Assembly: GCA_951813015.1 (NCBI GenBank)
Contig: CATOTG010000002.1
Coordinates: 325,310 to 389,309 of the forward strand
DNA length: 64,000 nt
Direction: 5' to 3'
From: an uncultured Thermoanaerobaculia bacterium
GTDB taxonomy: Bacteria; Acidobacteriota; Thermoanaerobaculia; Multivoradales; Multivoraceae
Of the stretch, positions 29,286 to 55,635 are shown one piece after another. A model generated the notes under the pieces. The model did not search any database, was not told the origin of the DNA, and saw only the letters and a program-made list of their open reading frames with translations. Position 1 is the stretch's first letter, and each line of letters starts with the position of its first letter. Both the position numbers and the translations under genes were made by a program.

Positions 29286-29291
29286 CAGCCC

Positions 29292-38495: not shown

Positions 38496-38639
38496 GAAGC
38501 CTGGACCGCCCTAGGTCCAGGTCCGATCACGTCGCGGCCCCGCTTTGCAGTCACCCCTGCCCGTGTGAGAGAGTTGTCCGCAGCAAGCCGACCGGCCCAC
38601 CAGTGCCGACACCTCCCTCGCCTTCCCGCGCACCCCGCC

Positions 38640-39644: not shown

Positions 39645-42008
39645 TTGCAGCAGCGCCTCTTCGATCACACACAAATGCGCCCGCACCTGCGCCTCAACCG
39701 AGAGCGGCCAACCACAAAGCGCCGCCCGCCTGGCGGATTCCCTCCTTCCCCGCCTCCGCCACAGGATCCGCAGGTCCACGGAGCCTCGCTGCACCAGAAA
39801 CTGCGTTCCGCACGCGAAAAGGCCGCCGCGGCTCTCGGCGGCTACGACCAGCGACGATTGATCAAGCTCAAGCTGGCAACGCAAGTATCGCCGGAGGCTC
39901 TCGCCCGGATTTCGCCCGGGATGGAGGCAGTAAGCCAGGAGGGCGAGAAGCTGATTCTCTACTTTGCGACCGACGATGCGCTGGAGACGTTTGAGGCGAA
40001 ACTCTCAAGTCTCAGCCAAGGCGAGGCGGTAACGCGCAAGGACCTGCTCTACGCTCTCAGCGACATCGATCATTGGAGCGAGGACGACCGCACTGGCCGG
40101 AGCCTCAAGCAGCACGGTCTGCCACCGGGCAAATCGGTAACGCTCGATGTGGAGCTATGGCCGTTGGACAGCCCGCAGGCCCCAACGCTTGCCACTTTCT
40201 CCGAGTGGTTGAAGGAACGTGGCGGCAAGGTCCTGGACAAGGTGAAGAAGGCCTACCTTGTGCTGTGCCGTGTCCGTTGCGACCGCGCTGTTGCCAGCGA
40301 CCTGCTTCGACACCGGGACGTTCGCACAATCGAACTTCCTCCGCGTCTGGCCCTGCCCCGGGAGATTCTCAGCGCCGATGTCCAGAACATTCCCGAGGTT
40401 GAAGCGCCACTGACCGATGCACCCGCTATCGTGGTTCTCGACTCCGGCCTCGCTTCCGGACACCCTCTGCTCGCACCCGCCGTGGGAGATTCCCAGAGCT
40501 TCCTGCCGGGCAGGTCGGCAGCCGACGAACACGGCCACGGTACGCTGGTCTCGGGCATCGCCCTGTACGGCGACGTAGCGAAAGCAATGGGCGCCCAGAG
40601 CCTTGTCCCGGATCTGCGTCTTTTCAGCGGACGGATACTGGACGAAACGAACCAGAGCAACGAGTCCCTCGTCGAGAACCAGATCGAAGACGCGGTCCGC
40701 TACTTCGTGGATCACTACGGCTGCCGCGTGTTCAACCTCTCCTACGGCGATCCCAACAGGTCCTACGAAGGCGGCAGGATCACGGGCCTCGCTGTGACGC
40801 TGGATGCGCTGAGTCGAGAACTGGGTGTGCTGTTCGTTGTACCCACCGGCAACTACGAGGGCGGCCCTGAGGGGCCGGAAGACTGGCGAGAAGACTACCC
40901 TGACTATTTGTCTGAGTCGAGTGCCCGCCTTCTCGACCCGGCCCCCGCCTTGAATGCCCTCACCGTCGGAAGTCTGGCACGTTGGGAGAAAACGATTCAG
41001 GCCGAAAGCTATTCAGACGATCCTGCCTACCAGCCCGTAGCGCGAACCGACGAACCGTCCCCGTTTACCAGAAGCGGCCCTTCGGTGAGAGGCGCGATCA
41101 AACCGGATCTTGTCGACTACGGTGGCAATCGAGCCGTTGATCTGCGGACGGGAAGCGAACTCACCGTCGGCAGGGCCGGCATCGGCGAACGCTCGACATC
41201 TCGCGACTTCGCGGCCGGCTCGCCATTCGCCGAGGGCTGCGGAACAAGCTTCGCCGCTCCGCGAGTCGCGCATGTTGCCGCGCACCTGCTGAGGGAGCTT
41301 CCAGGCGCAAGCGCCAATCTCTGCCGCGCTCTCCTCGTCGCGCACGCGCGGACTTCGCTCGCCTGCGCTGAGCTCTTCTCAGATGACCGCGCCGCCCTCC
41401 GCCGAATCACCGGCTACGGTCTGATCGACCGCTCCGCTCTCTACCGTTCGCCCGACGATTGCGTCTCGCTCTGGGCGACGGAGTCGATGACCAACAATCG
41501 GCACCACTTCTACGAGCTGCCGGTCCCGGATGAGTTCTGGTCTTCAGGTCGCCGCGAGCGGAGGATCACCGTTGCTCTTGCCTACTCTCCCGCTGTGAGG
41601 ACGACGCGCATCGACTACCGCGCGGCGAAAATCAGCTTCAAGTTGGTACAGGCTCAGTCGCTCGACGAAGTCGCCAGCTGGTTCAGCGCGGTGGAAGACA
41701 ATCCGGGAGCAGCACCGGTTGCCGAGCTGCCCACGGGAAGGAACATCACGGAGCAAAACCGCTCAAAGGGAACAGTGCAGGCTTCGAGTTGGACCTTTAC
41801 CGTAGCGAACCAATCCAGAAAGAAAGGATCCTGGTTCGTGGTCGTCACGCGCAACGATTTCCCGTGGGGGCAGAACATCTCCAACGAAAATGAAGAATAC
41901 GCTCTCGTAGCCACGATCGCGGATCGGCAATTTGCCGAGGCGCGACTCTATTCGCAGATCCAGGTCAGACTCCGACAACGCGCTCGAGCTCGAGCGAGCG
42001 ACCGTTGA
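39645..42008 (+). CDS. Subtilisin-like S8 serine peptidase (IetS-like)
   Basis: About 780 aa, starting 10 nt after the AAA gene. Start is either TTG 39645 or ATG 39675. Catalytic triad contexts VVLDSG (Asp), HGHGTLVSG (His), GTSFAAPRVA (Ser). Confidence 0.65.
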   Translation: MQQRLFDHTQMRPHLRLNRERPTTKRRPPGGFPPSPPPPQDPQVHGASLHQKLRSAREKAAAALGGYDQRRLIKLKLATQVSPEALARISPGMEAVSQEGEKLILYFATDDALETFEAKLSSLSQGEAVTRKDLLYALSDIDHWSEDDRTGRSLKQHGLPPGKSVTLDVELWPLDSPQAPTLATFSEWLKERGGKVLDKVKKAYLVLCRVRCDRAVASDLLRHRDVRTIELPPRLALPREILSADVQNIPEVEAPLTDAPAIVVLDSGLASGHPLLAPAVGDSQSFLPGRSAADEHGHGTLVSGIALYGDVAKAMGAQSLVPDLRLFSGRILDETNQSNESLVENQIEDAVRYFVDHYGCRVFNLSYGDPNRSYEGGRITGLAVTLDALSRELGVLFVVPTGNYEGGPEGPEDWREDYPDYLSESSARLLDPAPALNALTVGSLARWEKTIQAESYSDDPAYQPVARTDEPSPFTRSGPSVRGAIKPDLVDYGGNRAVDLRTGSELTVGRAGIGERSTSRDFAAGSPFAEGCGTSFAAPRVAHVAAHLLRELPGASANLCRALLVAHARTSLACAELFSDDRAALRRITGYGLIDRSALYRSPDDCVSLWATESMTNNRHHFYELPVPDEFWSSGRRERRITVALAYSPAVRTTRIDYRAAKISFKLVQAQSLDEVASWFSAVEDNPGAAPVAELPTGRNITEQNRSKGTVQASSWTFTVANQSRKKGSWFVVVTRNDFPWGQNISNENEEYALVATIADRQFAEARLYSQIQVRLRQRARARASDR

Positions 42009-42293
42009 CCAATATGCCGCCCTCAACCTCGCCCTTCCCGTTCAACCGCCACCGTCTCGCCGCCTCTGAGCTTCTCGGAGTCCGTTCCGGCACAACATCG
42101 AGGCCCGGGCCGACCGGCGCGGGCAAGTGACGGCGTTCACCTTCGACAGCCTGACCAGCATCCCCCGCCCCGTCCCCTGCAGCGAACTTCAGAGACTGGA
42201 TTGCGTCGGTCCCGCGAACTACGTGGCGGCAGAACCGATTTCACACGATCAACTCCTGAGGATCGTTCAGGCGGGCTTCCGAGAATCGGGCTC

Positions 42294-42782
42294 ATGACCG
42301 ACATCCTCATGTCGATCAAGCCGCCGTACGTCGACATGATCGTCTCCGGCTCCAAGACGGTCGAGATCCGGAAGCGAGCTGTCCGGGTACCAGCGGGAGC
42401 AAGGATCTGGATCTACGCAACCAGTCCGCGGCGGCAGGTAGTCGCATCCGCCCGGCTCGAAGAAGTCGTGCTCGACACGGCGGACGAGATCTGGCGCACC
42501 TTCGGCGACCGGGCCGGCATCGACCGCCTCGACTTCAACGCCTACGTTGGAGACAGCAGACTCGTCGCCGCACTATCCCTGACCGACGTCACCGCACTCG
42601 CCGCGCCACTATGCCCTCGCAGCGAGACGCCGGCATTCCGCCCGCCGCAGTCCTACTCGTTCCTTCGTGATGCCGAACTTCTGGCAGCCTTGGAGGAAAG
42701 GCATAGCACGGAGCGTTCAGCAGACGAGAACCAGATCAGTCCTCCGGCGCAACCAACCGAAACGGCCTTCGCAACCCCGTAG
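42294..42782 (+). CDS. ASCH-domain (PUA-like) protein
   Basis: N-terminus MTDILMSIKPPYVDMIVSGSKTVEIRKR matches the ASCH/EVE-type beta-barrel signature. About 160 aa. Start chosen inside ORF 42201..42782. Confidence 0.6.
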   Translation: MTDILMSIKPPYVDMIVSGSKTVEIRKRAVRVPAGARIWIYATSPRRQVVASARLEEVVLDTADEIWRTFGDRAGIDRLDFNAYVGDSRLVAALSLTDVTALAAPLCPRSETPAFRPPQSYSFLRDAELLAALEERHSTERSADENQISPPAQPTETAFATP

Positions 42783-42998
42783 ATCGGGCCGTGGACTCCC
42801 GGTCCACGAGGTCCGGCGCAACTCTCACGCTCCGCCGTCGTGCTACCGTCGCTTTGACAGCCATCGTCCCCCGGTCCGCCTGGGCCACACAGTTGCGGAT
42901 CGACTGCGCTGCCGGCTCGAACTCGCGAGCCAGTTGGTCCGGGGTTGACTGCCGAGCTCTTTTCGAACAACGAAGCCGCTGGCAATTCCAAGAAAACC

Positions 42999-44156
42999 CT
43001 AATGAAACAAGGCCTCCTGCTTCGGGAGAAGCGACAGTGACCCTCCGCGCCGCCTGAGCCGTTTTTGCTGCTTTAGTTCCGCCTCTACATCTCCAAGGTG
43101 CTTCCACCTCCAGATCTTCGAGCGCAGCTCCTCCTTCAGGACGTCCCTCAAGACCGGCCCCGCCTGGAGCCTGGCCACCAACCACCGACGCAGCGGCGCC
43201 AGATCGGGCTTCTCTTCGATCAAAAGGAACTGGTTCGGGTTCTCGGATCGCCGCACGCTCATGCTGCCGCCGGGGCAAACCGTCCAGACACACTCCTTCA
43301 TCAGGTCCCGTCCGTCATCGTGATTCGTCAGATGGAGCAGAAAGAAGCGCACCGCATCGCCACCCGAGACCATCCGCACATGGGTCCACCACTTCGCGCC
43401 TACTCGATCAGCCAGCAGCTTCGCGGCCTGATCGGCCCTCTCAACCATCGTTTCGCCCCGGATGTTCCGCCACGCATCGCCTCCGAAGAGCCGGTCGAGA
43501 TTCTCGGCCTGACCGTGTCCAGCTTTGAGCTCCTGGTGCATCGCCATGTCGAGTTCGCGCCACATCACGTTGACGAAGAGCTCGACGCGCTCAAACTCCA
43601 TGATCTCCGCGAGCAGGTCGCCCGGCAAACTGAAGCCATACGGATCCACGAAGAGGAAGGCAGGCGCCATCTGCTGACCCGCTGACTTCAGGGCGTCGAC
43701 CTCCCGGCGCAACACCTCGAACGCGTCGCCCGGCTCGACATCGACGACGATCCGGCGGGGCAGATCTTCAATCCGCTCAACCTCTCCCCTCAGCTCGGAC
43801 GCGTTCTGTTCATCCAGCTCCAGAAACACGAACCGGAACTCGGAGTTTTCCAAGAGCCGGTCTCTCGCCGTGTGGTCAAGCAGCGTCCTCAGCGCCACGA
43901 GTGGCGAACCGGGATTCTCGCCTGCATAGCTACCACGCCCGGCGTGAGTGTCAAAGTACACGACTTTGCCGGACCACAAGCCGAGTTTGGGAAACCAGCC
44001 TTTCAGGTAGGCGTCAATCAGCTCGTGCTTGACCCGCTGGAAACGACCGTAGTCCCTCCAATGATCCGGCTGTGGATCGACAGATCTGTTCACAGTCCCT
44101 TGGTCCTCAGTTCGCCGGGAACTCGTCGTAAGTCCTACCCTTGAGCAGGCGCCCAT
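42999..44156 (-). CDS. Three-Cys-motif partner protein TcmP-like
   Basis: 385-aa ORF encoded immediately downstream of a Gp37/Gp68 gene, overlapping it by 14-50 nt depending on the start. An alternative GTG start lies about 21 codons in. Confidence 0.55.
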   Translation of the reverse strand: MGACSRVGLTTSSRRTEDQGTVNRSVDPQPDHWRDYGRFQRVKHELIDAYLKGWFPKLGLWSGKVVYFDTHAGRGSYAGENPGSPLVALRTLLDHTARDRLLENSEFRFVFLELDEQNASELRGEVERIEDLPRRIVVDVEPGDAFEVLRREVDALKSAGQQMAPAFLFVDPYGFSLPGDLLAEIMEFERVELFVNVMWRELDMAMHQELKAGHGQAENLDRLFGGDAWRNIRGETMVERADQAAKLLADRVGAKWWTHVRMVSGGDAVRFFLLHLTNHDDGRDLMKECVWTVCPGGSMSVRRSENPNQFLLIEEKPDLAPLRRWLVARLQAGPVLRDVLKEELRSKIWRWKHLGDVEAELKQQKRLRRRGGSLSLLPKQEALFH

Positions 44157-44832
44157 TCACATGCTTCCGCGGCCCTCCCCACTGCTTGAAGAAGAAGGGG
44201 ACGTCATCTCGCCGGCACTGAAGCAGGACATTGATCACCCACGCTTCCAGCATGGGCCGCGCTCCGGGACCGCTCTCGCCGCCGACGATGACCCAGTCGA
44301 TGCCGGTCAGGTCGAACTCCTCCAGATCCTCAAGAAGCGGTTCGATTGAGGCAAAGCGAACCGCTGCCGGCGTCTGCCGTAACGCCTGCAGCCGCGGCAA
44401 GCCCTGCCGTCGGTTCTCGACGCTCACTCCAAACCAGACGTTCGGCAACTCACCCATCCAGGAAAGAGGCCCCACAAGAAGCTCGTGCATTCGCTCGTGT
44501 CTCTTCGTGAGCACCTGGTAGGTGTGTCGCTGGACTTCGCTCATCACCCGGCCCACCTCGGCGATGTAGCTCACGGGAACCTGCGGATGGAAGAGGTCGC
44601 TCATCGAGTTCACGAACACGCGGCGAGGCCGACGCCAGCGACGCGGCTGATCAAGCTTGGCCGGTACCAGGCGAAGGTCGAAACCCTGCTCGAAGGGGTG
44701 CCTCGGGACGCCACGGAAGCGCTCCGAGAAGCGCTCTGCGTAGCAATGTGCGCAGCCTGCACTGACCTTTGTGCAGCCGAGCACCGGGTTCCAGGTCGCG
44801 TCGGTCCATTCGATCGCACTCTTCTCTGACAT
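44107..44832 (-). CDS. Phage Gp37/Gp68 family protein (DUF5131)
   Basis: N-terminus IEWTDATWNPVLGCTKVSAGCAHCYAE is the family three-Cys signature. ATG 44832 is preceded by GGAGAG. 241 aa. Confidence 0.7.
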   Translation of the reverse strand: MSEKSAIEWTDATWNPVLGCTKVSAGCAHCYAERFSERFRGVPRHPFEQGFDLRLVPAKLDQPRRWRRPRRVFVNSMSDLFHPQVPVSYIAEVGRVMSEVQRHTYQVLTKRHERMHELLVGPLSWMGELPNVWFGVSVENRRQGLPRLQALRQTPAAVRFASIEPLLEDLEEFDLTGIDWVIVGGESGPGARPMLEAWVINVLLQCRRDDVPFFFKQWGGPRKHVNGRLLKGRTYDEFPAN

Positions 44833-44868
44833 GCAGGCTCTCCAGGTGCCGGGCCTAACGCATCGCCA

Positions 44869-44898
44869 AGCCCAGCCCGTTATACAGGATCATGCATG
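44869..44898 (-). promoter_or_regulatory. Candidate sigma70-like promoter for the gp37-tcmP operon: TTGCGC-17 nt-TATAAC on the minus strand
   Basis: Read as reverse complement. The spacer contains the palindrome tcatgcatga. This is a locally AT-richer stretch in an otherwise high-GC locus. Confidence 0.3.
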
Positions 44899-44983
44899 AA
44901 AGCGCAACTAGGGCGTAACCGGAGCCGCACCATCCAAGCTCTTTGCGGAACAGGAGCGGGAGGACCGCCCGCCCGCCGGGAAG

Positions 44984-46019
44984 TTGCGCGCCGACGCACT
45001 GGCTCTGGTGGCGGAGAGCGCGCTTGCGGGAGGTCTCGATCCTGGAACCAGCGGCGACCGATACCAGGTCGTCGTTCACGTCAACGACCGTGAGTTGGAA
45101 GCCCCCGAATCCGCGGCCACGAGGAACCGGCCCGGCGTTTCCGCGGGAACGCCGCGGCAGGCCGAAGTCCAGGCCAACGGCGCGGCGGAAGTGAACGGCC
45201 GCGTTCCCGCGGGAACGTCGGTGCACCCCGAAGTTCAGGCCAACGGAGCGGCAGGAGTAGACGGCCACGTTCCCGCGGGAACGTCGGGGGACCCGGCGCG
45301 ACGCTCTGTCGCAGCCGAATCTGCCAGGACCGAATCTGCCGACTGCGAGCACTCCGCCGGCGCCTGGGTGGGCAGGTCGCATGTCCGCGTTTCCGCTGAA
45401 ACGGCTCAGGCGCATCGCCTGCGACGCCGGGAAGGTCGTCATGCGGCACCGTTCCGGGCAGATCCTGAGCGTGGGCCGCAAGACGCGGACCATCCCGCCG
45501 CCCATCCGCCGCGCCCTGGAGTTCCGCGACCGGGGCTGCCGCTTCCCCGGCTGCACCTCGCAGCACTGCGACGCCCACCACATCGAGCACTGGGCCGACG
45601 GCGGCGAAACGAAGCTCTCGAACCTCGTGCTGCTCTGCCGCCGACACCACCGCCTGCTCCACGAAGGCGGTTTCAGCCTGCGCATGGACGACCAAGGCGC
45701 CGTGGGGTTCTACAACTCGCGCGGGCGACTGCTCGAACGGAGCCCGGCGCCGCCGGTCGTCGGCGACGACGCCGCCCGGGAGTTGATCGAACACCTGGAG
45801 GATGCTGGCATCCTGATCACCGGGGACGAATCGATGCCGGCCTGGAACGGTGAACCGATGGACCTGCACTACGTCATGAAATGCCTGTGGAGACCGCCTC
45901 CGCACCTCGAAGCCATCGTGGCCCGGGAGCGGGGTACCTCCAAACAGCTCGTCGACCCGGCGCAGCCAGAGTCTCCTCACCAGACGAGCAGCTCCTCACT
46001 CTCGCCCTTCGGGCGCTAG
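44984..46019 (+). pseudogene. DUF222/HNH endonuclease (13E12-type), 5'-truncated and frameshifted
   Basis: Two frames carry homologous pieces. Frame 44984..: ADALALVAESALAGG...RYQVVVHV (DUF222 middle region). Frame 45381..46019: HNH core with CRFPGC...HHIEHWADGG...LLCRRHHRLLHEGG. No complete N-terminal domain. Confidence 0.6.
45135..45283. repeat. Tandem ~66-bp duplication carrying three copies of the 16-bp palindrome cgttcccgcgggaacg
   Basis: Palindromes at 45135-45150 (one mismatch), 45201-45216 and 45268-45283. They lie inside the HNH pseudogene. Confidence 0.6.
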
Positions 46020-46116
46020 TACAGCGAAGAGCGCGAGAGGTCGAGCAGACGGCACTGGCGGAAAAGGCTCAACGCCTCTTCGTCCCGCTTCACCATCCGC
46101 CTGCGCTCGGGCCGGC

Positions 46117-46431
46117 TCAGTGCCCGAGCCTTCTCGACAAGAAGTCCCGCTCGACCGTCAACTCCCCGATCTTCGCCTGCAGGTCCCTGACCTCCTCCTC
46201 CCGGTCACGGCGACGCTCCGGCCCCGCCGAGAAGGTCTCCTGCATCCCCTCGACCGCCTTCCGCTTCCAACTGCCGACCTGGTCCGGGTGAACGCCGTGC
46301 CGCGACGCAATCGCCGAAATCGGTTTCCCCTGGCGCAGCGCCTCGAGCGCCACCTTCGACTTCTCCTGGCTCCTCCTCTCGGTTGAGGAGTACACCTTAG
46401 CCACCTGTCCAGTTCTTCGGGGCCACCTCAT
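46117..46431 (-). mobile_element. IS3-family transposase orfA (HTH) remnant with no orfB
   Basis: 104 aa (...KVALEALRQGKPISAIASRHGVHPDQVGSWKRK...ELTVERDFLSRRLG) matches the IS3/IS911 OrfA consensus. No integrase-domain ORF or inverted repeats follow. Confidence 0.65.
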
Positions 46432-46508
46432 CGTTCAGGGTTGGACGCGAAGAGTGAGGTGGTGAGCGCGGTTGACGCCCGCCGCACCCATGTGTCACAT
46501 TTGTGCAC

Positions 46509-46748
46509 ATGGAACAGATCGGCATTCGCGAACTCCATCTGAAGACCGGCGAGTGGGTGCGGCGAGCCGCCAGAGGACGGGGCGTCGTCGTCACGGAGCG
46601 TGGCCGCCCGGTGGCTTCGCTTCTACCGTTCCGCGAAGACGCACTGGGGGTTTCCTTCGCCGACCGTCAACTGCTGCCCGAGTTCGAGGCCCTGCCGGAG
46701 ATCCGCGGCGACTCGGCCGCGGGTATCTCGGAGGACCGGGACCGCTAG
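46509..46748 (+). CDS. Type II antitoxin, Phd/YefM family
   Basis: MEQIGIRELHLKTGEWVRRAARGRGVVVTERGRPVASLLPF. 79 aa. Followed immediately by a PIN-domain gene. Confidence 0.7.
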   Translation: MEQIGIRELHLKTGEWVRRAARGRGVVVTERGRPVASLLPFREDALGVSFADRQLLPEFEALPEIRGDSAAGISEDRDR

Positions 46749-47191
46749 TGGCGTACTTCGACACCGCCTATCTGGTCAAGTGCTACGTGAAGGAGGAAGG
46801 GTGGGACAGCGTCCGAGCGTTGGCTGCCGAGCGCGGCTGGGTTGCCTGCTCGGTGTTTGGGCGCCTGGAGCTGCACGCGGCGCTGCACCGGACATTCCGT
46901 GAGGGTCGCCTCACACGAAGGGAGCTTGAGGTCGTCCTCGATCAACTGAGCGCCGACGAGGCGATGAGAATGTGGCACTGGCTGCCGCTCTCCGCGGCGG
47001 TGAGGACGGCGGTAGTTGACCTGTTCGGGCAGCTTGCACCGGGAGTCTTCCTGCGAACCGGGGACGCGGTCCACCTGATGTCGGCCAGGGAGAGCGGCTT
47101 TCGGGAGGTCTTCAGCAATGACCGACGCCTCCTGGCGGCGGCACGGCACGTCGGCATCACCGGCGTGGATGTCATCGGAGGGCGCCAGTGA
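46748..47191 (+). CDS. vapC: Type II toxin VapC (PIN domain)
   Basis: GTG 46748 overlaps the antitoxin stop as taGTG. PIN acidic residues VAYFDTAYLVK...; 147 aa. Confidence 0.7.
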   Translation: MAYFDTAYLVKCYVKEEGWDSVRALAAERGWVACSVFGRLELHAALHRTFREGRLTRRELEVVLDQLSADEAMRMWHWLPLSAAVRTAVVDLFGQLAPGVFLRTGDAVHLMSARESGFREVFSNDRRLLAAARHVGITGVDVIGGRQ

Positions 47192-47201
47192 GAAAGTCCG
47201 A

Positions 47202-47417
47202 GTGAGCGAATCGAACGACCGGGACGCCACGGCGCAGACGTCCGTCGAGGTCCGCGAGGACATCGTCGACGCCCTCAAGGTCGACCTCGTCGGCCCCGGC
47301 GCCGGCCACGAACTCGCGCGCGAGCGGTTGCCCGCAAACGAAGCGCCCTCGAAGTGGCATCTCGCCGGCTTCCTGATTCCATCCGGCACGCCGCCGGTTA
47401 AGCGGCTCAACTGCTGA
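47202..47417 (+). pseudogene. Diverged 5' fragment (about 70 codons) of a drmA paralog
   Basis: VSESNDRDATAQTSVEVREDIVDALKVDLVGPGAGHELARERLPANEAPSKWHLAGFLIPSGTPP aligns, at about 60% identity, with the N-terminus of the 1141-aa drmA at 49396 (MSEPNNHDAAAVTSLDVRRTLVEAIELDLIGPWRGHELARERLPVFEAPSNWYLTGFLIPTGTPP). It ends in a stop after 71 codons. Confidence 0.55.
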
Positions 47418-47591
47418 CGCCTACCGTCAGACAGCCATCGTTGCGCCCCCCAACGACTAGACTCGCCGCATGAGCGGGCGCGACCTCAGGAGCCCCAAGC
47501 CGACTGCAAGGCGCGTGGTTCACCGCACCGCCTCCAGTCAGTCGGTCGTCAGAGCCCGACGGTCCCGCCAGCGCGGCCCCAGAGATCCAGC

Positions 47592-48797
47592 GTGACCGCC
47601 GACCGCCGCCTGTTGACTCGCGTTGCCCTCCGCAACTACAAGAGCATCGCCGCATGCGACGTGTCGCCAGCGAAGCTGTGCTTCCTCGTAGGTCCGAACG
47701 GCTCCGGCAAGAGCAACTTCCTCGACGCGCTTCGGTTCATCGCCGAGTCTCTTCGGTCTTCGATGGATCAGGCGCTGCTCGCACGCGGAGGCATCAACGA
47801 GGTGCGGCGGCGCTCTGGTGGCCACCCGACGCACTTCACCATCCGTGTCGAGTTCGCCCTCGACGCATCGCGAGGCCACTATGCGTTCACTGTCGGGTCC
47901 AAACGCCAGGCCCGCTACCAGGTCCAGCGCGAAGAGTGTCTCGTCGTACCGACGAACGGGCAGAGCGCTCACTTCTTCAAGGTCGAGAGCGGGCGAGTTA
48001 CCAAGACGACCCTCTCGCCAGCGCCAGCGGCACTGCCCGATCGCCTGTACCTTGTGAATGTCTCCGGTCTCAAGGCGTTTCGGCCCGTCTACGACGCCCT
48101 CTCGAGGACTGGCTTCTACAACCTGAACCCGGCAGCCATACGCGACCTTCAGCCGCCCGACACGGGCGAACTCCTCAAGCGGGACGGGAGCAACATCGCA
48201 AGTGTCCTGGCCAACCTCGCCACGAGTTCGCCTCCGTCAAAACGGAAGATCGAGGAGTACCTCGGGACCGTCGTTCCTGGCATGGCGGGCGTCGGTCGTC
48301 ATCGGCTCGGTCCCAGAGAGACGCTCGAGTTCCGGCAGGAGGTGCGCGGTGCGGAGCATCCCTCGCGCTTCCTCGCCAACAACATGTCCGACGGAACGCT
48401 TCGCGCACTCGGCCTGCTCGTCGCACTCTTTCAGGGCGCGAGCAACGGCGCCGCAGGGCCCGGACTGGTGGGCATCGAAGAGCCGGAAGTCGCGCTTCAC
48501 CCCGCAGCCGTGGAAGTCCTCATCGATGCGCTGCTTGACGCTGCTGAACACGCCCAGATCCTCGTCACGAGCCACAGCACCGAACTGCTCGATCACCCGG
48601 AAATTCGGGACGACTCGATCCTTGCCGTGGTAGCAGAGCACGGCGAGAGCCGCATCGGTCCGCTGGACGAGGTTGGGCGGTCGGCGTTGAAGAAGCACCT
48701 CTTCACCGCCGGCGAACTGCTCAGAATGAACCAACTCGATCCGGATCCAGTGCTCTCGAAACCCGGGCAAATCAGGCTCTTCGGTCCCGAGCCCTAG
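47592..48797 (+). CDS. AAA_21/SMC-like ATPase (OLD/AbiL-type ATPase component)
   Basis: 401 aa. Walker A FLVGPNGSGKSNFLDAL. ABC-type signature and Walker B LVGIEEPEVALHP. Typical of two-gene ATPase plus Toprim-like systems. Confidence 0.7.
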   Translation: MTADRRLLTRVALRNYKSIAACDVSPAKLCFLVGPNGSGKSNFLDALRFIAESLRSSMDQALLARGGINEVRRRSGGHPTHFTIRVEFALDASRGHYAFTVGSKRQARYQVQREECLVVPTNGQSAHFFKVESGRVTKTTLSPAPAALPDRLYLVNVSGLKAFRPVYDALSRTGFYNLNPAAIRDLQPPDTGELLKRDGSNIASVLANLATSSPPSKRKIEEYLGTVVPGMAGVGRHRLGPRETLEFRQEVRGAEHPSRFLANNMSDGTLRALGLLVALFQGASNGAAGPGLVGIEEPEVALHPAAVEVLIDALLDAAEHAQILVTSHSTELLDHPEIRDDSILAVVAEHGESRIGPLDEVGRSALKKHLFTAGELLRMNQLDPDPVLSKPGQIRLFGPEP

Positions 48798-48799
48798 CC

Positions 48800-49399
48800 G
48801 TGCTCACGATCGCCTCCATCGTGGAAGGTCACGGTGAAGTCGCGGCCCTGCCGATCCTTCTGCGGAGGATCGCGGCAGTGGTAGCGCCCGAAGAACCCAT
48901 CTCCGTGCCCCGACCCATCCGGGTAAAGCGGCAACTCGTAGTGAAACCCGGAGAGTTGGAGCGGTATGTCGAGGTTGCCGCGAGCCGAGCCGGTGCCGGA
49001 GGAGCAATCCTGCTCGTGCTGGACGCCGATACCGACTGTCCGGCTGAACTCGCCGTCGAGTTGTGCCGGCGCGCCCGAGCCGCACGGGCGGACCGTGCCA
49101 TCCGCACCGTACTGGCCAAGGCGGAGTACGAGTCGTGGTTCGTCGCCGCGGTCGAGTCGATTGCGGAACGGCCGCTGCACGCTGTCGCACCGCCGCCCGA
49201 TCCAGAGTCGATCAGGGACGCCAAGGGCTGGTTGAGTCGAAACGCGCTGGCTCACGGAACCTACCGCCCCACACGCCACCAGGCCAGATTCACTGCTGCC
49301 TTCGACCTGAGCGCCGCGCGGTCGGCGCCCTCGTTCGACAAGCTGTGGCGTGACGTAACCTCCCTGCTCGTTCCGCCGGCAACGATCATCTCCGAATGA
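48800..49399 (+). CDS. DUF4276-family protein (Toprim-like partner of the AAA_21 ATPase)
   Basis: 199 aa (IVEGHGEVAALPILLRRI...LVLDADTDCP...KAEYESWF). GTG 48800 sits 2 nt after the ATPase stop. Its own stop overlaps the drmA start as ATGA. Confidence 0.55.
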   Translation: MLTIASIVEGHGEVAALPILLRRIAAVVAPEEPISVPRPIRVKRQLVVKPGELERYVEVAASRAGAGGAILLVLDADTDCPAELAVELCRRARAARADRAIRTVLAKAEYESWFVAAVESIAERPLHAVAPPPDPESIRDAKGWLSRNALAHGTYRPTRHQARFTAAFDLSAARSAPSFDKLWRDVTSLLVPPATIISE

Positions 49400-52300
49400 G
49401 CGAACCGAACAACCACGACGCTGCGGCCGTGACGTCTCTCGATGTCCGCCGGACCCTCGTCGAAGCGATCGAACTCGACCTCATCGGCCCATGGCGAGGT
49501 CACGAGCTTGCCCGGGAGCGGCTGCCGGTTTTCGAGGCGCCATCCAACTGGTACCTCACCGGCTTCCTGATTCCGACCGGAACGCCGCCGGAACTGAGCC
49601 GGGACGACGAGCAGGACGACGGCGGGCCTGACGAGACGCCCGAGCGACCCGGCCTCGCCGAGGAATCGACGGAGGGCCGGATGGCAGCGAAGAAGCTCTT
49701 CTTCCCTTCCTCGATGGGTCTGAGCTTCCTCGCAACCGCGGACAGCCGGCTCGATGTCTCCGTTCGCTGGGGCGACTACGAACTGGTCGCAACCGCCACC
49801 GATGCTGTGGAAGGCGACGGCGGCAACGACAAGGCCGGGGCGCAATACTGGCAGCGGAACACCGGAGAGGAGACCGTGGAGATCGCCCTCCAGATAGCGA
49901 CGGAGGAGCCCGTCCACGACGTACCCGGCTCGGGCGGGCTGAGACTTCACGTCGAGCAGAGGCCCATCTCCCAGATCGCCTCCATCCCCGAAGGCACGCG
50001 GGCTGTCAGCGTGTTCCTCGTGAACGAGCGGGAGCCTGCGACTTCGCTCCAGGACACCGAGCCGACCTACGCGTTCCAGGCCGAAGTCGAGATCCGCAGC
50101 GAACAGCCGTTCGTGCCGAGACCGGACCCACGCTCGGCGGAGACCGATGACTGGGATGAACAGGTCGCGGCCCTTCACTACCTGGACGCCCCGAGCTACG
50201 CCACCGGTCACAACGTCGGCGCCACCTGGGACGTCGACAGCGACGGGAAGTGCCGGAAGATCCGCACGACCTGGATGCCCCGGGCAGAGGTCGAGAAGAC
50301 GGAGACCAGCGAACCGGACGGGGTCGACCTGTCGATGGACCGGCTCGGCCAGCTTGCCGGCGCCGACGATGCGGACAGGACCCTGCGACCGCTCGTCGCC
50401 GCTTACCGCGAGTGGATCAACGAACAGCGCAGGGCGCTCGAGGAAGTTCCCGAAGAGCACGCGGAGACCGCGGTCGAACTCCTCGATCAGGCCAAGTTCG
50501 CCGCCTCGCGGATGGAGCGAGGGGTCGAGGCGCTCCAAAGCGACGAACAGGCACTCGACGCCTTCCGCCTGGCGAATCGCGCCGTGGCCCAGGCTCTTCG
50601 GCGCCGAACCCCTGAGGTCTTCGAAGATGCAGCGCCCCGATGGCGGGCATTCCAGCTCGCCTTCATCCTGCTGAACCTCGCGCCGCTCGCGGACCCCACC
50701 GACCCGCACCGGGAGATGGTCGACCTGCTCTTCTTTCCCACCGGCGGCGGCAAGACGGAGGCCTACCTGGGTCTCGCCGCCTTCGCGATCGTACTGAGGC
50801 GGCTCCGGAATCCGGAGGCGGGCGGGCGGGCAGGCGCGGGCGTCTCTGTTGTCATGCGCTACACGCTGAGGCTGCTGACCCTCGATCAACTCTCGCGCGC
50901 CGCGGGCCTGATCTGCGCGCTGGAACTGGAGCGGGCCGACGCGCCCGAGCGCTACGGCGAGTGGCCGTTCGAGATCGGCCTGTGGGTCGGCAGGGCGGCG
51001 ACGCCGAACCACATGGGGCGAAAGGGCGCCGAACCGCCCGGTTCCGCCCGCCAGAAGGTGCGGCGCTTCAAGGCGAAACCCGGCTACGAGCCGTCACCCG
51101 TCCCCATTGAGGACTGCCCCTGGTGCGGTACGAAGTTCGAGCCCAGCTCCTTCACGCTGCAACCGAACGACGACGAGCCGACCAACCTGCGCGTGATCTG
51201 CGCAAACTGGGAGTGCGAGTTCTCCGGCGACCGGCCGCTCCCCATCGTCGCCGTCGACGAACCGTTGTACCGCCGCCTGCCCTGCTTTCTCGTTGCCACG
51301 GTGGACAAGTTCGCGGCCCTGCCGTGGGAGGCCCGCGCCGGCGCGCTCCTCGGCGGCGCCGACCGACACGATGCGGAGGGCTTCTACGGCGCGGCGGCGC
51401 CGAGCCGGGGCCAGCCGCTGCCCTCGCCCCTGCCGCCGCCCGACCTCATCGTCCAGGACGAACTCCACCTGATCTCCGGACCCCTGGGGTCGATGGCCGG
51501 CCTCTACGAGACGGCGGTCGAGGCGCTGGCGCTCCGCGGTTCCGGCAGCCGCGGCGCGAAACCGAAGATCGTCGCCTCGACCGCCACCACCCGGCGGGCG
51601 CAGGAACAGATCCGGGCCCTCTTCGGCCGTCAGATGACCCGCGTCTTCCCGCCGCTCGGACCGTCGCGGCGCGACTCGTTCTTCTCCCAGGTCGTACCGG
51701 CGAGCGTGAAGCCGGCTCGGCTATACCTCGGCATCGCGTCGCCGGGCAGGAATGCGAAGGTCCAGATGCGGCGCGTTCTGCTGCCGCTGATGGCGGCGGC
51801 GCAGCAGGCCTTCCGGAACGCGGGCGGCCACGACAACGAGAACAACGCCGCCGACCCGTACATGACGGTGCTTGCCTACTTCAACAGCCTTCGCGAACTC
51901 GGCGGTGCGCGGCGCATCGTCGAGGAGGAGGTCCAGAACACTCTGGGCCGCTACGGAGCAAGGCGCAGACTGAACCAGGAGAGGAGGTACTTCCGCGATC
52001 GCGGGCGTCTCTACGAGCCGCTGGAGTTGACCTCCCGGGTCTCGACGGCCCAGGTCGCCGCTGCGCGACGGCGGCTTGGTCAGCCTTTCCATGCGACGGA
52101 CCGGGTCGACGTGGCCCTGGCGACGAACATGATCTCCGTCGGCCTCGACATCCAGCGACTCGGGCTCATGGTCGTCATGGGTCAGCCGAAGACGACCGCC
52201 GAGTACATCCAGGCGACCAGCCGAGTCGGCCGCGCAGACGCGAAGCCCGGTCTCGTCATCACCCTGCTCAACGCCCACAAGCCGCGCGACCGCTCCCACT

Positions 52301-52821
52301 ACGAACGCTTCCGGCACTACCACGAGACCTTCTACCGCGCGGTCGAGGCTGGAAGCGTCACGCCGTTCGCGGCCCGGGCGTTGGACCGGGGAATGGCCGG
52401 AACCCTCGTCGCGCTCGCTCGGCACGCGGAACCGTCTCTGACGCCGGCCACCGCTCCGCCAGGGCTCGCCGAGGTCCGCGCGCAGCTCGAGGCACTGCTC
52501 CTCGATGCGTTCTCCGAGCGGCTCAGCCGCCAGAACATGCCGGAAGCCGAGCGGGAAGAGAAGCTCGGCTCGGTTCGTCGGCGCGTAGGCGACCTGCTCG
52601 ACTCCTGGCAGTACGTCGTGGACGACTATCGGGACACCGGCACCGCGGTGAAGTACCAGCAGTACGAGCGGGAGCAGGGCAAACCACTGCTCCGCGAGAT
52701 GTTGGACACGGACTTCGAGTCACCCCATCACAAGAAGTTCCGCGTCAACCGCTCGCTTCGTGACGTGGAGCCCCAAGTGAACCTGTTCATCACGAAGCCG
52801 GCCGGTGGCGGAGCGGATTGA
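49396..52821 (+). CDS. DISARM DrmA-like helicase
   Basis: 1141 aa. Helicase motif I LFFPTGGGKTEAYLGL, DExH-like DELHLISGP, helicase C region and a Zn-ribbon CPWCGTKF...C. Followed by DUF1998 and PLD genes with overlapping start/stop codons. Confidence 0.65.
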   Translation: MSEPNNHDAAAVTSLDVRRTLVEAIELDLIGPWRGHELARERLPVFEAPSNWYLTGFLIPTGTPPELSRDDEQDDGGPDETPERPGLAEESTEGRMAAKKLFFPSSMGLSFLATADSRLDVSVRWGDYELVATATDAVEGDGGNDKAGAQYWQRNTGEETVEIALQIATEEPVHDVPGSGGLRLHVEQRPISQIASIPEGTRAVSVFLVNEREPATSLQDTEPTYAFQAEVEIRSEQPFVPRPDPRSAETDDWDEQVAALHYLDAPSYATGHNVGATWDVDSDGKCRKIRTTWMPRAEVEKTETSEPDGVDLSMDRLGQLAGADDADRTLRPLVAAYREWINEQRRALEEVPEEHAETAVELLDQAKFAASRMERGVEALQSDEQALDAFRLANRAVAQALRRRTPEVFEDAAPRWRAFQLAFILLNLAPLADPTDPHREMVDLLFFPTGGGKTEAYLGLAAFAIVLRRLRNPEAGGRAGAGVSVVMRYTLRLLTLDQLSRAAGLICALELERADAPERYGEWPFEIGLWVGRAATPNHMGRKGAEPPGSARQKVRRFKAKPGYEPSPVPIEDCPWCGTKFEPSSFTLQPNDDEPTNLRVICANWECEFSGDRPLPIVAVDEPLYRRLPCFLVATVDKFAALPWEARAGALLGGADRHDAEGFYGAAAPSRGQPLPSPLPPPDLIVQDELHLISGPLGSMAGLYETAVEALALRGSGSRGAKPKIVASTATTRRAQEQIRALFGRQMTRVFPPLGPSRRDSFFSQVVPASVKPARLYLGIASPGRNAKVQMRRVLLPLMAAAQQAFRNAGGHDNENNAADPYMTVLAYFNSLRELGGARRIVEEEVQNTLGRYGARRRLNQERRYFRDRGRLYEPLELTSRVSTAQVAAARRRLGQPFHATDRVDVALATNMISVGLDIQRLGLMVVMGQPKTTAEYIQATSRVGRADAKPGLVITLLNAHKPRDRSHYERFRHYHETFYRAVEAGSVTPFAARALDRGMAGTLVALARHAEPSLTPATAPPGLAEVRAQLEALLLDAFSERLSRQNMPEAEREEKLGSVRRRVGDLLDSWQYVVDDYRDTGTAVKYQQYEREQGKPLLREMLDTDFESPHHKKFRVNRSLRDVEPQVNLFITKPAGGGAD

Positions 52822-54665
52822 TGGCCAAGGCCAAGGGAACAGGTGCGCCTACCGGCAGCATTCGCCGCAGTCAGGTCATCACGACCTACGGACCGGGCGC
52901 ACTGATCGACCTGCCCCACGACTCCGCCATCGTCGGCGGGCTGGATTTCTGGCCACGGCATGGTTCTCTCGAGCAGATAGACGAACCCAGGCTCAGCGCC
53001 AGGCTGCGCAGCCTGACGGGCGGCACGCTGCCCGCCCTCCACGCCCCGCCCGCCGCTTCGGACCGGCCCGGCGACGCCTCGGCCGGCATCGACGCGCCCC
53101 GGTTCCCCGAGTGGTTCGTCGTGCAGCGGGAGAAGTCCTCAGCCGACCATCAGGGCGGCCGCCGTTCGCGCCGCCTGGTTCAACGCAAGTCGCTCGACGA
53201 ACGACGCAAATTCAAGAACCTGGTCCATGGCGGCCAGCCGGTCGTCGCGATCCGCTTCGTGCGCGGCTGCCCGCGCGGCCATGTCGACGACATCGACTGG
53301 TGGAGCTTCGTCCACCGCGGCGTGACGGACTGCCGGGGCGAACTGGGAATCGAGGAACAGGGCACCGGCGGAGACCTCTCGAACCTCTTCGTTCGCTGCA
53401 GTTGCGGCAACTCGCGGGGGCTGCACGAAGCCAAGGAGATGGCCGACCGGCCGCTCGGTCACTGCAGCGGCGCCCGACCGTGGCTGGGCCGACACGCCAA
53501 CGAGGAGTGCGGCGAGCCGGCGCGGCTGCTGATCCGGACCGCCACGAACGCGTGGTTTCCGCAGATCGTCACGGTGCTCTCGCTGCCGAAGCCGAGCGAG
53601 GCGGTCGACGGCATCGTCGCCGAACTGTGGGACGACCTGGAGATCGTCACCGAGCAGGACGAACTTCGGTTCCTGAAGAAGAAGCCGAGAGTCGAGGCCG
53701 CCCTGCACGGCGTCGACGACGCCGACGTGCTCGCGGCAATCGAACGCCGAAAGGCGGGCGACCCGGACGACCGACCAGTCAAGCTCGCCGAACTGGACGC
53801 CCTGCTGAAAGCGCCGGAAGGCTACGACGACGACGTGCCGGTCGACGACCGATTCCACGCCCGGCGCCTGCCAGAGTCCGTATGGCGGGAGGGTGCACGG
53901 CCCTTCGCGGACCGGATAGATGCCGTCGTGCAGGTTCACCGCCTGCGCGAGGTTTCGGCACTCACCGGTTTCACCCGCTTCGAGGCGCCGACACCGGACA
54001 TCCTGGGGGAGGTCGACACGGATGTGGAGCGCGCCGCGCTCGCGCTGGAGCCCGCCTGGTTCCCGGCCGTGGAGAACCGGGGCGAAGGCGTCTTCGTCCA
54101 GTTGGCGACCACAGCCGTTGCGGAGTGGTGCGGCCGCGAGGATGTCCAGATGCGCTGCGCCACTCTGGCCGCGGGCCACGAGCGCCGTGAAGCGGAACGA
54201 CCGACGAGTGCGAAGCGGCGGCCGTTTCCGGGCGGCCCCTACATCCTCCTGCACACGCTGTCTCACCTGCTGATCACGTCCCTGGCGCTGCGCTGCGGTT
54301 ATCCCGCGGCATCGATTCGGGAGCGCGTCTACGTCGACGAAGTCGCGAAGAGGTACGGACTCCTCCTCTACACCGCCAGCGCCGACGCCGAGGGAACGCT
54401 GGGCGGCCTCGTACAGCAGGCCCGGACCATCGGAGAGCATCTCCGCCACGCTCTCCTCCTCGGCCAGCTCTGTTCGAACGACCCGGTCTGTGCCCACCAC
54501 CGACCCGACCACAGCGCCGAGAAACGGTGGCTTCACGGCGCCGCCTGCCACGGCTGCACGCTGATCGCCGAGACCTCCTGCGAGACGCGGAACGACCATC
54601 TCGACCGCAGCCTGGTTGCGCGGATCATCGGCGGCGGCGCGGGCTTCTTCGGTCCGATCGAGTGA
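52821..54665 (+). CDS. DISARM DrmB-like protein (DUF1998)
   Basis: ATG 52821 overlaps the drmA stop as TGATG. N-terminal SQVITTYGPGALIDLP and C-terminal four-Cys cluster CSNDPVC...CHGCTL are typical of DUF1998. Confidence 0.65.
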   Translation: MAKAKGTGAPTGSIRRSQVITTYGPGALIDLPHDSAIVGGLDFWPRHGSLEQIDEPRLSARLRSLTGGTLPALHAPPAASDRPGDASAGIDAPRFPEWFVVQREKSSADHQGGRRSRRLVQRKSLDERRKFKNLVHGGQPVVAIRFVRGCPRGHVDDIDWWSFVHRGVTDCRGELGIEEQGTGGDLSNLFVRCSCGNSRGLHEAKEMADRPLGHCSGARPWLGRHANEECGEPARLLIRTATNAWFPQIVTVLSLPKPSEAVDGIVAELWDDLEIVTEQDELRFLKKKPRVEAALHGVDDADVLAAIERRKAGDPDDRPVKLAELDALLKAPEGYDDDVPVDDRFHARRLPESVWREGARPFADRIDAVVQVHRLREVSALTGFTRFEAPTPDILGEVDTDVERAALALEPAWFPAVENRGEGVFVQLATTAVAEWCGREDVQMRCATLAAGHERREAERPTSAKRRPFPGGPYILLHTLSHLLITSLALRCGYPAASIRERVYVDEVAKRYGLLLYTASADAEGTLGGLVQQARTIGEHLRHALLLGQLCSNDPVCAHHRPDHSAEKRWLHGAACHGCTLIAETSCETRNDHLDRSLVARIIGGGAGFFGPIE

Positions 54666-54720: not shown

Positions 54721-55635
54721 GTGCTTAGGCAGCACAGGCAGTCATTTGCCGCCGACCCGCCCACGGAACAGCAATCCAGGAGGTTGCCGGACCTGCCTGC
54801 CTTCTCGCGGAAACCGCCTGACCGCAAACCGACAGGCGTGAACGAGCAGGCATTCAACGCTCTGATCGAACTTCCGGCGCATCTCCGGAGCTCGCTGGCG
54901 GCCGCGCTGGACGCAGGTCTGCTCCGGTTCGACTCCACCGCGACGGCCGTTCGGGCCAACCTGTCGCCCGGGGCCGACCGGGAGGGGCAGGTGCTCCGAC
55001 TGCTCGGCGCCTGGCGGCGGCTCGGTCTCTCCGAACCAGCGGCCGCCGCGTGGCTTCGAAGCCTGAACCGACTCGCGGGCGCCTCCCCGGGCCCCGACTT
55101 CGTGTGGTCCGGGCCGGAGGTTCCCGGCCTTCACGCCCGCGACACGCGGCGTGTCTACGACGAGGTCATCGGCGCGGCGTCCCGGTCGATCTGGGCGTCC
55201 ACGTACGCCTTCTTCGACGGGGAACGCGCCTTCAGGGTTCTGGCCGAGAAGATGGACGCACTGCCCGCCCTCGACGTCACCCTGCTGCTGAACATCCACC
55301 GCGGACGCGGCGTCACGACCGCCGCGGACCATCTTGTTCGCAGCTTCGCGGACAGCTTCTGGAAGCGAGAATGGCCCGGCGCCGCGCGGCCCACCGTGTT
55401 CTACGACCCGCGCTCAGTGGAACCGGATGGTCCGAAGGGCGTTCTCCACGCGAAGGCCGTCGTGGCCGACGAAGAAGTCGTCTTCATCACCTCGGCCAAT
55501 TTCACTGAAGCGGCGCTCGACCGCAACATCGAGACCGGTCTCGTGTCCCGGGACCGTCACCTTGCCCTGACCGCCGTCAGGCACTTCAGGGCGCTGATCG
55601 ACCGCAAGCTGCTGCTGCCTCTGCCGATGGACTGA
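54721..55635 (+). CDS. DISARM DrmC-like phospholipase-D-family nuclease
   Basis: HKD motif GVLHAKAVVADEEVVFITSANFTEAALDRN. Start is uncertain: GTG 54721 or GTG 54838. The ORF track begins it at 54616, overlapping drmB. Confidence 0.6.
   Translation: MLRQHRQSFAADPPTEQQSRRLPDLPAFSRKPPDRKPTGVNEQAFNALIELPAHLRSSLAAALDAGLLRFDSTATAVRANLSPGADREGQVLRLLGAWRRLGLSEPAAAAWLRSLNRLAGASPGPDFVWSGPEVPGLHARDTRRVYDEVIGAASRSIWASTYAFFDGERAFRVLAEKMDALPALDVTLLLNIHRGRGVTTAADHLVRSFADSFWKREWPGAARPTVFYDPRSVEPDGPKGVLHAKAVVADEEVVFITSANFTEAALDRNIETGLVSRDRHLALTAVRHFRALIDRKLLLPLPMD

Follow-up and report, generated by a model that had tools for sequence, protein, structure and literature searches.

A HEC-01 cassette nested in a class 1 DISARM operon and joined to drmA in an Acidobacteriota lineage

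Does a pair of genes joined to the front of drmA belong to the DISARM defense system, or is it a passenger that has come to share the operon? The question is raised by a stretch of 64,000 nucleotides (nt) from an uncultured Thermoanaerobaculia bacterium (contig CATOTG010000002.1, positions 325,310 to 389,309; here called the window, with positions counted from its first nucleotide). Immediately upstream of drmA in the window lie a gene for an ABC-type ATPase and a gene for a DUF4276 protein. An earlier reading of the DNA, made without database searches (the sequence-only reading), described an OLD/AbiL-like ATPase-nuclease pair expressed as the first cistrons of drmABC, and offered two explanations: a recent insertion that hijacked the drmA promoter, or a role in an undescribed DISARM variant. 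We conclude that the pair is a HEC-01 cassette and the last element of the cargo inside a class 1 DISARM operon. The explanation that we favor, with a probability of roughly 75%, is that an autonomous HEC-01 cassette nested in DISARM has long been fused to drmA in this lineage. The arrangement is real and lies where that reading placed it, and most of its explanation is known already, as a case of the embedding of genes in defense systems described by Payne et al.

The two genes match the HEC-01 models nearly end to end. HEC-01A (47592..48797, plus strand, 401 residues, GTG start) matches the PADLOC model PDLC04178 at 529 bits (E 1.6e-159), with residues 2-397 on profile positions 2-394 of 399, and the Pfam families AAA_21 (E 1.1e-29), AAA_15 and SMC_N. 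HEC-01B (48800..49399, plus strand, 199 residues, GTG start), the DUF4276 protein and a putative Toprim-type nuclease, matches PDLC04196 at 224 bits (E 3.1e-67) and Pfam DUF4276 at E 1.1e-09 over 190 of 192 profile positions. The name stands for "Hma-embedded candidate 01", an ABC ATPase with a TOPRIM-like protein, and the family is the one most often embedded in Hma systems (Payne, Hughes, Fineran and Jackson 2024, bioRxiv 10.1101/2024.01.29.577857). The same study found embedded genes to be frequent in BREX, DISARM and type I restriction-modification systems, with 96.7% co-oriented with the host system. The window has the same gene order, ATPase and then DUF4276/TOPRIM, and the pair is likewise embedded and co-oriented in a multi-gene, methylation-based defense system, between drmMI and drmA on the same strand. 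It differs in that the host is class 1 DISARM rather than Hma, and in its stop/start fusion to drmA and its co-inheritance with that gene; embedding in DISARM is mentioned in the published work only in general terms (bioRxiv 10.1101/2024.01.29.577857). An exact-sequence look-up of the window's DUF4276 protein returned no match, and the nearest record is 99% identical (locus L001; the loci compared are numbered from L001 on).

Several better-known systems were considered and set aside. Secondary PADLOC matches involve the ATPase only: AbiLi (93 bits, 3.9e-27), Old (63 bits, 6.8e-18), AriA (3e-28, through the generic AAA_21 region), mad3 (1.4e-26) and GajA (9e-14). Searched against PADLOC and Pfam, the second open reading frame (ORF) had no AbiLii, AriB, DUF4435, Old, GajA or mad4 match, and among the PADLOC models only those of HEC-01B matched it. 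AbiL is also a two-gene, ATPase-first cassette, but AbiLii does not match the second gene and AbiLi scores 93 bits against 529 for HEC-01A, and we rejected this identity. PARIS (AriA/AriB), Gabija (GajA) and P2 Old share the logic of an ABC ATPase with a Toprim-type nuclease. Here, however, the partner is DUF4276 and not DUF4435 (AriB) or Toprim_Old, and it is a separate gene, whereas Old and GajA are fused proteins whose models cover the ATPase only in part and miss the DUF4276 protein. OLD/Gabija and PARIS identities were therefore rejected. MADS was rejected for its weak mad3 match, the lack of a mad4 match and the absence of the mandatory mad6-8 (mad8 has only a marginal match, on IetA). 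The OLD/AbiL-like label of the sequence-only reading is thus right in that the pair is an ATPase with a putative nuclease of the wider OLD/PARIS/Gabija-like kind, but the pair is neither AbiL nor OLD: the AbiLi/AbiLii and OLD-type profile check that it proposed reaches the ATPase alone, far more weakly than the HEC-01A and HEC-01B models reach their genes.

The placement of HEC-01B among Toprim proteins comes from the literature, in which two papers assign DUF4276 to the Toprim superfamily or name it as a partner of AAA15/21 ATPases; Mad4 of MADS has also been named as a DUF4276 homologue (Menshen paper, PMC12065111). In an alignment of 33 homologues, E9 (in IVEGHGE), D75 (in LLDAD), E109 and E111 are invariant, and D79 is conserved with E109 and E111 near D75. 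The candidate DxD motif in the window is D75-A-D77, and several of these homologues have E, N or another residue in place of the second Asp. An AlphaFold2 model of HEC-01B (predicted local distance difference test score, 86.7) has the order beta1-alpha1-beta2-alpha2-beta3-alpha3-beta4, with E9 at the end of beta1 (strand E2-9) and D75 at the end of beta3; this predicted order of strands and helices would fit the Toprim layout. We infer nuclease activity for HEC-01B and an anti-phage function for the cassette.

The junctions that first drew attention to the locus were all found as described by the sequence-only reading. HEC-01A and HEC-01B are separated by 2 nt (TAG at 48795-48797, cc, and GTG at 48800), the HEC-01B stop and the drmA start share ATGA at 49396-49399, and the drmA stop and the drmB ATG have one base in common in TGATG at 52819-52823, with GGAG 7 nt upstream of the drmB ATG. 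The ATG at 49396 is the true start of drmA: it is the first start codon in the ORF, the alignment to relatives begins at residue 1, and even truncated remnants keep the N-terminal 100 residues. Overlaps of stop and start codons are normal in operons, and the geometry of the pair-drmA-drmB junctions is real without being remarkable in itself. The coupling holds for drmA and drmB, but drmC is probably not coupled. Its likely start is the GTG at 54838, 172 nt after the drmB stop, because the drmC of relatives (called at 265 residues) and the DrmC hidden Markov model, which begins to match at residue 82 of the long ORF starting at 54616, both place it there.

The host is a complete class 1 DISARM system, with all five genes on one strand and in canonical order. 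drmD (30536-33922, plus strand; PADLOC DrmD E 4e-302; Pfam SNF2/Helicase_C) is followed by drmMI (33981-38495, plus strand; N6-adenine methyltransferase; PADLOC DrmMI E 0; Pfam Eco57I/MmeI methyltransferase domains), drmA (49396..52821, plus strand; 1141 residues; PADLOC DrmA E 2.3e-275), drmB (52821..54665, plus strand; 614 residues from the ATG; PADLOC DrmB E 7.3e-81, Pfam MZB) and drmC, the gene for a PLD nuclease (54838..55635, plus strand, from the likely GTG start; longest ORF from 54616; PADLOC DrmC E 1.7e-68). It departs from the usual class 1 arrangement in that approximately 10.9 kb of cargo, including minus-strand genes, splits the operon between drmMI and drmA, and drmABC is no longer coupled to drmMI. 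The HEC-01 pair is the drmA-proximal end of this cargo.

Is the pair a part of DISARM? Its distribution says that it is not. The DUF4276 protein has 1446 homologues at E <= 1e-5, and a survey of one genome per species returned 80 pair loci (L005-L084), mostly from metagenome-assembled genomes (MAGs) of Acidobacteriota, Gemmatimonadota (Longimicrobiales), Spirochaetia, Proteobacteria and Planctomycetota. Gene calls in the fetched loci came from a crude heuristic based on GC content at third codon positions (GC3), and the counts given here rely on tblastn coordinates. A HEC-01A homologue adjoins the DUF4276 gene in 80/80 loci. Class 1 DISARM genes lie within 10 kb of the pair in 15 of the 80 loci, and there are none in the other 65. 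Neighbors of these 65 pairs are heterogeneous: a few type III methyltransferases, PglZ, other AAA_21 systems and transposases, and also molybdopterin oxidoreductases, D-Ala-D-Ala ligase, Mfd and sigma factors (the scan covered 73 same-strand neighbor proteins out of 121 and gives counts of families, not assignments to loci). Approaching from the DISARM side, we surveyed 80 DrmA-centered metagenome loci with DrmA 36-66% identical to that of the window, and tblastn (1e-4) found HEC-01A or HEC-01B homologues in 0/80. Because most pairs have no DISARM nearby and none of these DISARM loci has the pair, the pair is an autonomous cassette, free-standing in most genomes, and not a DISARM subunit or a regular component of class 1 DISARM. 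The suggestion that such ATPase-nuclease pairs stand alone elsewhere is borne out by the 65 loci. The suggestion of an undescribed DISARM variant is contradicted by the same two surveys, which found drmA without the pair in relatives and the pair at unrelated loci, the pattern that the sequence-only reading itself took to mark just another inserted cassette.

Why, then, is the cassette found at this point in the operon? Both the end of drmMI and the start of drmA were visible in 42 loci. The drmMI stop abuts or overlaps the drmA start (gap of -37 to +29 nt) in 17 of them, and in 25 other inserts, of 0.8-8.3 kb, lie between the two genes. The junction of drmMI with drmA is a recurrent and preferred cargo site in class 1 DISARM. 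Since the two genes abut or overlap where nothing has been inserted, an uninterrupted drmA lacks space for its own promoter and is coupled to drmMI. In the window this coupling has passed to the DUF4276 gene.

This change of coupling partner is old. In the window and in all nine relatives compared, the pair is directly 5' of drmA, and the relatives span a wide range of DUF4276 identity to the window: 99% in L001, 84% in L002, 81% in L004/L005 (a Thermoanaerobaculia MAG), 78% in L165, 72% in L006 and L008 (Ca. Multivorans), 69% in L167, 66% in L168 and 63% in L009. Eight of the nine (66-99% identical) have HEC-01B overlapping drmA by 4 nt or ending 3-6 nt before it; in L009 the DUF4276 and DrmA matches likewise abut, the exact junction being beyond the crude gene calls. 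Cargo between drmMI and the pair differs in each locus of the clade. A neighbor-joining tree of concatenated HEC-01A and HEC-01B unites the window with L002, L005, L006, L008 and L009, and the non-DISARM locus L007 is nested inside this drmA-fused clade; L001, L165, L167 and L168 have the same arrangement at comparable identity. Because the junction is kept in relatives with divergent DUF4276 proteins, the insertion before drmA was not recent, and the fusion is old, stable and co-inherited in one Acidobacteriota clade (Thermoanaerobaculia / Ca. Multivorans). The recent insertion proposed by the sequence-only reading does not fit this conservation. No convincing direct or inverted repeats, such as an insertion might leave as scars, were found on either side of the pair.

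The pair keeps other company with DISARM outside this clade. A second clade is mostly embedded in DISARM (8 of 12 members), with the pair right after drmMI, before drmA with other cargo between, or between drmD and drmMI (L063). In a Longimicrobiales MAG (OZ242008; L024, 8790-12528), two tandem HEC-01 pairs (A-B-A-B) exactly fill the drmMI-drmA gap, each with proteins approximately 47-57% identical to those of the window. L015 and L072 are further isolated cases of the pair beside drmA, and L017 has the pair after drmC.

Loss of DISARM leaves the cassette in place. Downstream of drmC the window continues with minus-strand genes of an ordinary chromosomal kind (beta-lactamase family, BNR_2, PQQ_2), and L168 (ENA ERZ23496164) shares this chromosomal neighborhood (beta-lactamase, BNR_2, PQQ_2). 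There, all that remains of DISARM within 10 kb is a stub of drmA (10597-10935), which begins 5 nt after an intact pair, encodes the first 100 residues of DrmA (64% identical) and precedes a Phd/PIN toxin-antitoxin pair. Similarly, L165 has an intact pair beside an internally deleted drmD, a fragmented drmMI and a broken drmA. Both genes of the pair are full length in all nine clade members compared. An intact pair at loci that have lost DISARM, by decay or deletion, speaks for selection that acts on the cassette independently of its host.

What drives drmA in the window, if drmMI no longer does? The best candidate is a conserved 24-nt motif upstream of the pair, CAACGACTAGACTCGCCGCATGAG (47451..47474, plus strand), which consists of a -10-like TAGACT, 6 nt and an ATG. 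It is unique in the window, where 0 matches are expected by chance. Its 12-nt core, ACGACTAGACTC, is found exactly in 7 of the 164 loci compared, all from the clade in which the pair abuts drmA, and L165 has a copy of the 24-mer with one mismatch. Sequence upstream of the motif is unrelated between lineages. A search upstream of all 80 related pairs found it confined to the drmA-fused clade, so it is no general feature of HEC-01. In L005 and L006 the ATG of the motif is the start codon of HEC-01A itself, an arrangement that a leaderless mRNA would be expected to have. The same ATG opens, in the window, L001, L008 and L009, an ORF of 41-46 codons whose TGA overlaps the GTG or TTG start of HEC-01A (in the window 47470..47595, plus strand, 41 codons, ending in GTGA). 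This possible upstream ORF is only tentative, because the peptide is poorly conserved and such open frames are common at 67% GC. We suggest that CAACGACTAGACTCGCCGCATGAG may be the promoter and leaderless start of the cassette operon.

Other regulatory features were sought around the pair. Rfam gave no match over 44800-49600, and the predicted folding of the leader (47395-47600) is only modestly more stable than that of shuffled sequence (z -2.4). If the 3' end of HEC-01B concealed a promoter for drmA, synonymous sites there would be expected to be constrained, and no excess synonymous conservation was found (0.68-0.71 vs 0.65-0.79 gene-wide; nine relatives, a comparison of low power). Minus-strand cargo genes (42999-44832 and 46117-46431) separate drmABC from drmD-drmMI. 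The hijacking of a drmA promoter is contradicted by uninterrupted loci, which leave no intergenic space for one, and the motif upstream of the pair looks like the cassette's own. Dependence probably runs from drmABC on the cassette promoter, not the reverse.

We can now propose how the locus came about and works. A HEC-01 cassette became fused to the 5' end of drmA long ago in the Thermoanaerobaculia / Ca. Multivorans lineage. Its promoter (TAGACT, 6 nt, ATG; 47457-47472) would drive one transcript carrying the possible upstream ORF, HEC-01A, HEC-01B, drmA, drmB and drmC, on which HEC-01A to drmB would be joined by overlaps or the 2-nt gap and drmC would follow approximately 172 nt later. We infer that this promoter serves drmABC because cargo on the opposite strand cuts drmABC off from drmD-drmMI. 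Such dependence would explain why the pair-drmA junction is kept while the cargo upstream of the pair turns over, and why insertions have accumulated upstream of the pair and have not parted it from drmA. If the cassette works as OLD, Gabija and PARIS do, the ATPase might sense an infection cue and license the Toprim nuclease.

Several observations weigh against this explanation. DISARM is over-represented near this HEC-01 subfamily (15 of 80 loci), its association with two clades is persistent (6 of 7 and 8 of 12 members), and the pair is often the cargo closest to drmA; any of the three could come from a link in function and not from history. The motif on which the promoter and leaderless-start reading is built occurs in one clade only. 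A scan of 44800-50000 for sigma-70 promoters and intrinsic terminators found none, and such a scan is uninformative at 67% GC. Transcription of the PIN toxin-antitoxin genes, which lie just upstream on the plus strand, could continue into the pair. Lastly, HEC-01 expressed in E. coli protected against no phage tested, so that the anti-phage function of the family is unproven (bioRxiv 10.1101/2024.01.29.577857).

The alternative that best survives, though we consider it unlikely, is that the pair is an integrated DISARM accessory, a Toprim nuclease/ATPase effector acting on DNA left unmethylated by DrmMI, much as Mad3 and Mad4 may act in MADS. In MADS, loss of mad3 (the ATPase) or mad4 (the DUF4276 protein) weakens defense, mad5 can be deleted only if mad2 or mad3 is deleted as well, and the system is predicted to encode an N6-methyltransferase (Maestri et al., bioRxiv 10.1101/2023.03.30.534895); mad5 is presumably the gene for it. 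MADS and the window thus both have an ATPase and a DUF4276 protein inside a methyltransferase-containing defense operon, and the window ATPase does match the mad3 model. The tight drmA junction in relatives with DUF4276 63-99% identical, the two DISARM-associated clades, the tandem pairs that occupy the whole drmMI-drmA gap of L024, the absence of drmC beside the pair in L004/L005 and the inactivity of HEC-01 by itself in E. coli would all suit an effector. However, the pair is genetically required in MADS, whereas the comparative data here argue against dependence on the host: the pair is missing from all 80 DrmA-centered loci surveyed, most pairs have no DISARM nearby and some lie among housekeeping genes, and the pair is intact where DISARM is deleted (L168) or decayed (L165). 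Its position within DISARM also varies (before drmA, after drmMI with cargo, between drmD and drmMI in L063, after drmC in L017), and the DUF4276 protein is unmatched by any mad4 model. A broader form of the same idea, which we think slightly less probable again, is that HEC-01 cassettes are plug-in ATPase/Toprim effectors for methylation-based systems (Hma, DISARM, MADS) and here supply nuclease activity to DISARM. This would explain both the inactivity of HEC-01 alone in E. coli and the requirement for Mad3/Mad4 in MADS, and it is disfavored because of the same distribution data.

It is less probable still that the pair is mainly an addiction or abortive-infection module, in which a toxin-like nuclease held in check by the ATPase stabilizes the DISARM island rather than restricting phage directly. 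Pfam annotates AAA_21 as a "putative AbiEii toxin, type IV TA (toxin-antitoxin) system", the pair sits among toxin-antitoxin genes (Phd/PIN), and it is retained while neighboring genes decay; but toxicity is without evidence, HEC-01 could be expressed in E. coli for plaque assays (Payne et al.), and many relatives lie outside islands, beside housekeeping genes. Least probable of all, and by our estimate very improbable, is a recent insertion just upstream of drmA that has come under a drmA promoter already present there: GC3 is lower in the pair (0.75-0.78) than in drmABC (0.82-0.86) and a transposase fragment and other cargo are nearby, but the same junction is present in relatives with DUF4276 only 63-84% identical, the pair and DrmAB proteins diverge in parallel, a drmA promoter would find no room in uninterrupted DISARM, the pair is not flanked by direct repeats, and the only conserved non-coding element is upstream of the pair.

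The rest of the cargo lies between drmMI and the pair. Following drmMI are IetA (38565-39635, plus strand) and IetS (39645-42008, plus strand), together an Ietas system, and then genes for an ASCH protein (PDC-M11B; 42201-42782, plus strand), a PDC-M30A/M41A-like protein (42999-44156, minus strand), a DUF5131 protein (44107-44832, minus strand) and an HNH protein (45381-46019, plus strand). These are followed by a fragment of a transposase helix-turn-helix (HTH) region (46117-46431, minus strand), a Phd-type antitoxin (46503-46748, plus strand), a PIN toxin (46748-47191, plus strand) and an ORF of 71 residues (47202-47417, plus strand). GC content is 67.5% over the window and falls to 0.61-0.63 over 39.8-44.6 kb. 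L004 shows the same GC3 offset of the pair as the window does (0.78-0.84 vs approximately 0.89-0.90), despite long joint inheritance. Some cargo recurs at the same place: a large acetyltransferase with an ASCH protein (PDC-M11-like) and a minus-strand DUF5131 gene (window 42201-44832; L002 4127-8540; L167 958-8530; L168 4900-6959). The window has the ASCH gene without the acetyltransferase, and the Ietas system instead. Part of the approximately 550-nt gap between the divergent DUF5131 and HNH genes is filled by three to four tandem copies, with a period of 66 nt, of a unit built on the perfect palindrome CGTTCCCGCGGGAACG (45135-45290, with 45388-45409), which could be an operator array or an element resembling repetitive extragenic palindromes.

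Two further observations concern genes beside those of DISARM. Just upstream of drmD in the window (28809-30539) are a 158-residue SNF2 C-terminal fragment with matches to the DpdE and ZorD models and a 415-residue HTH protein; the equivalent position in L168 has a full 890-residue DUF3670-SNF2 gene and an HTH gene. The fragment and the HTH gene may be a remnant of another helicase-based system. A SprT-like protein of 222-225 residues replaces drmC after drmB in L004/L005 (15919-16587) and follows drmC in L165 (15839-16516), and may be an alternative or additional DISARM accessory in this lineage.

To the embedding already described, the locus adds the drmMI-drmA junction as a preferred cargo site of class 1 DISARM, a cassette that is stably fused to drmA in the Thermoanaerobaculia / Ca. 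Multivorans lineage and probably supplies the drmA promoter, and the survival of that cassette when DISARM is lost. It is a well-resolved example of defense systems nested in one another, in which one cargo element appears to have turned into the operon head for drmABC and is co-inherited with it. For annotation, the pair should be called HEC-01, and not AbiL, OLD or a DISARM gene. If DISARM restriction did need the pair, this would bear on the nuclease effector of DISARM, and the comparative data make such a need unlikely. We suggest that the locus is a natural test bed for whether embedded cassettes share only regulation with their hosts or cooperate with them, and for the activity of HEC-01 in its native context.

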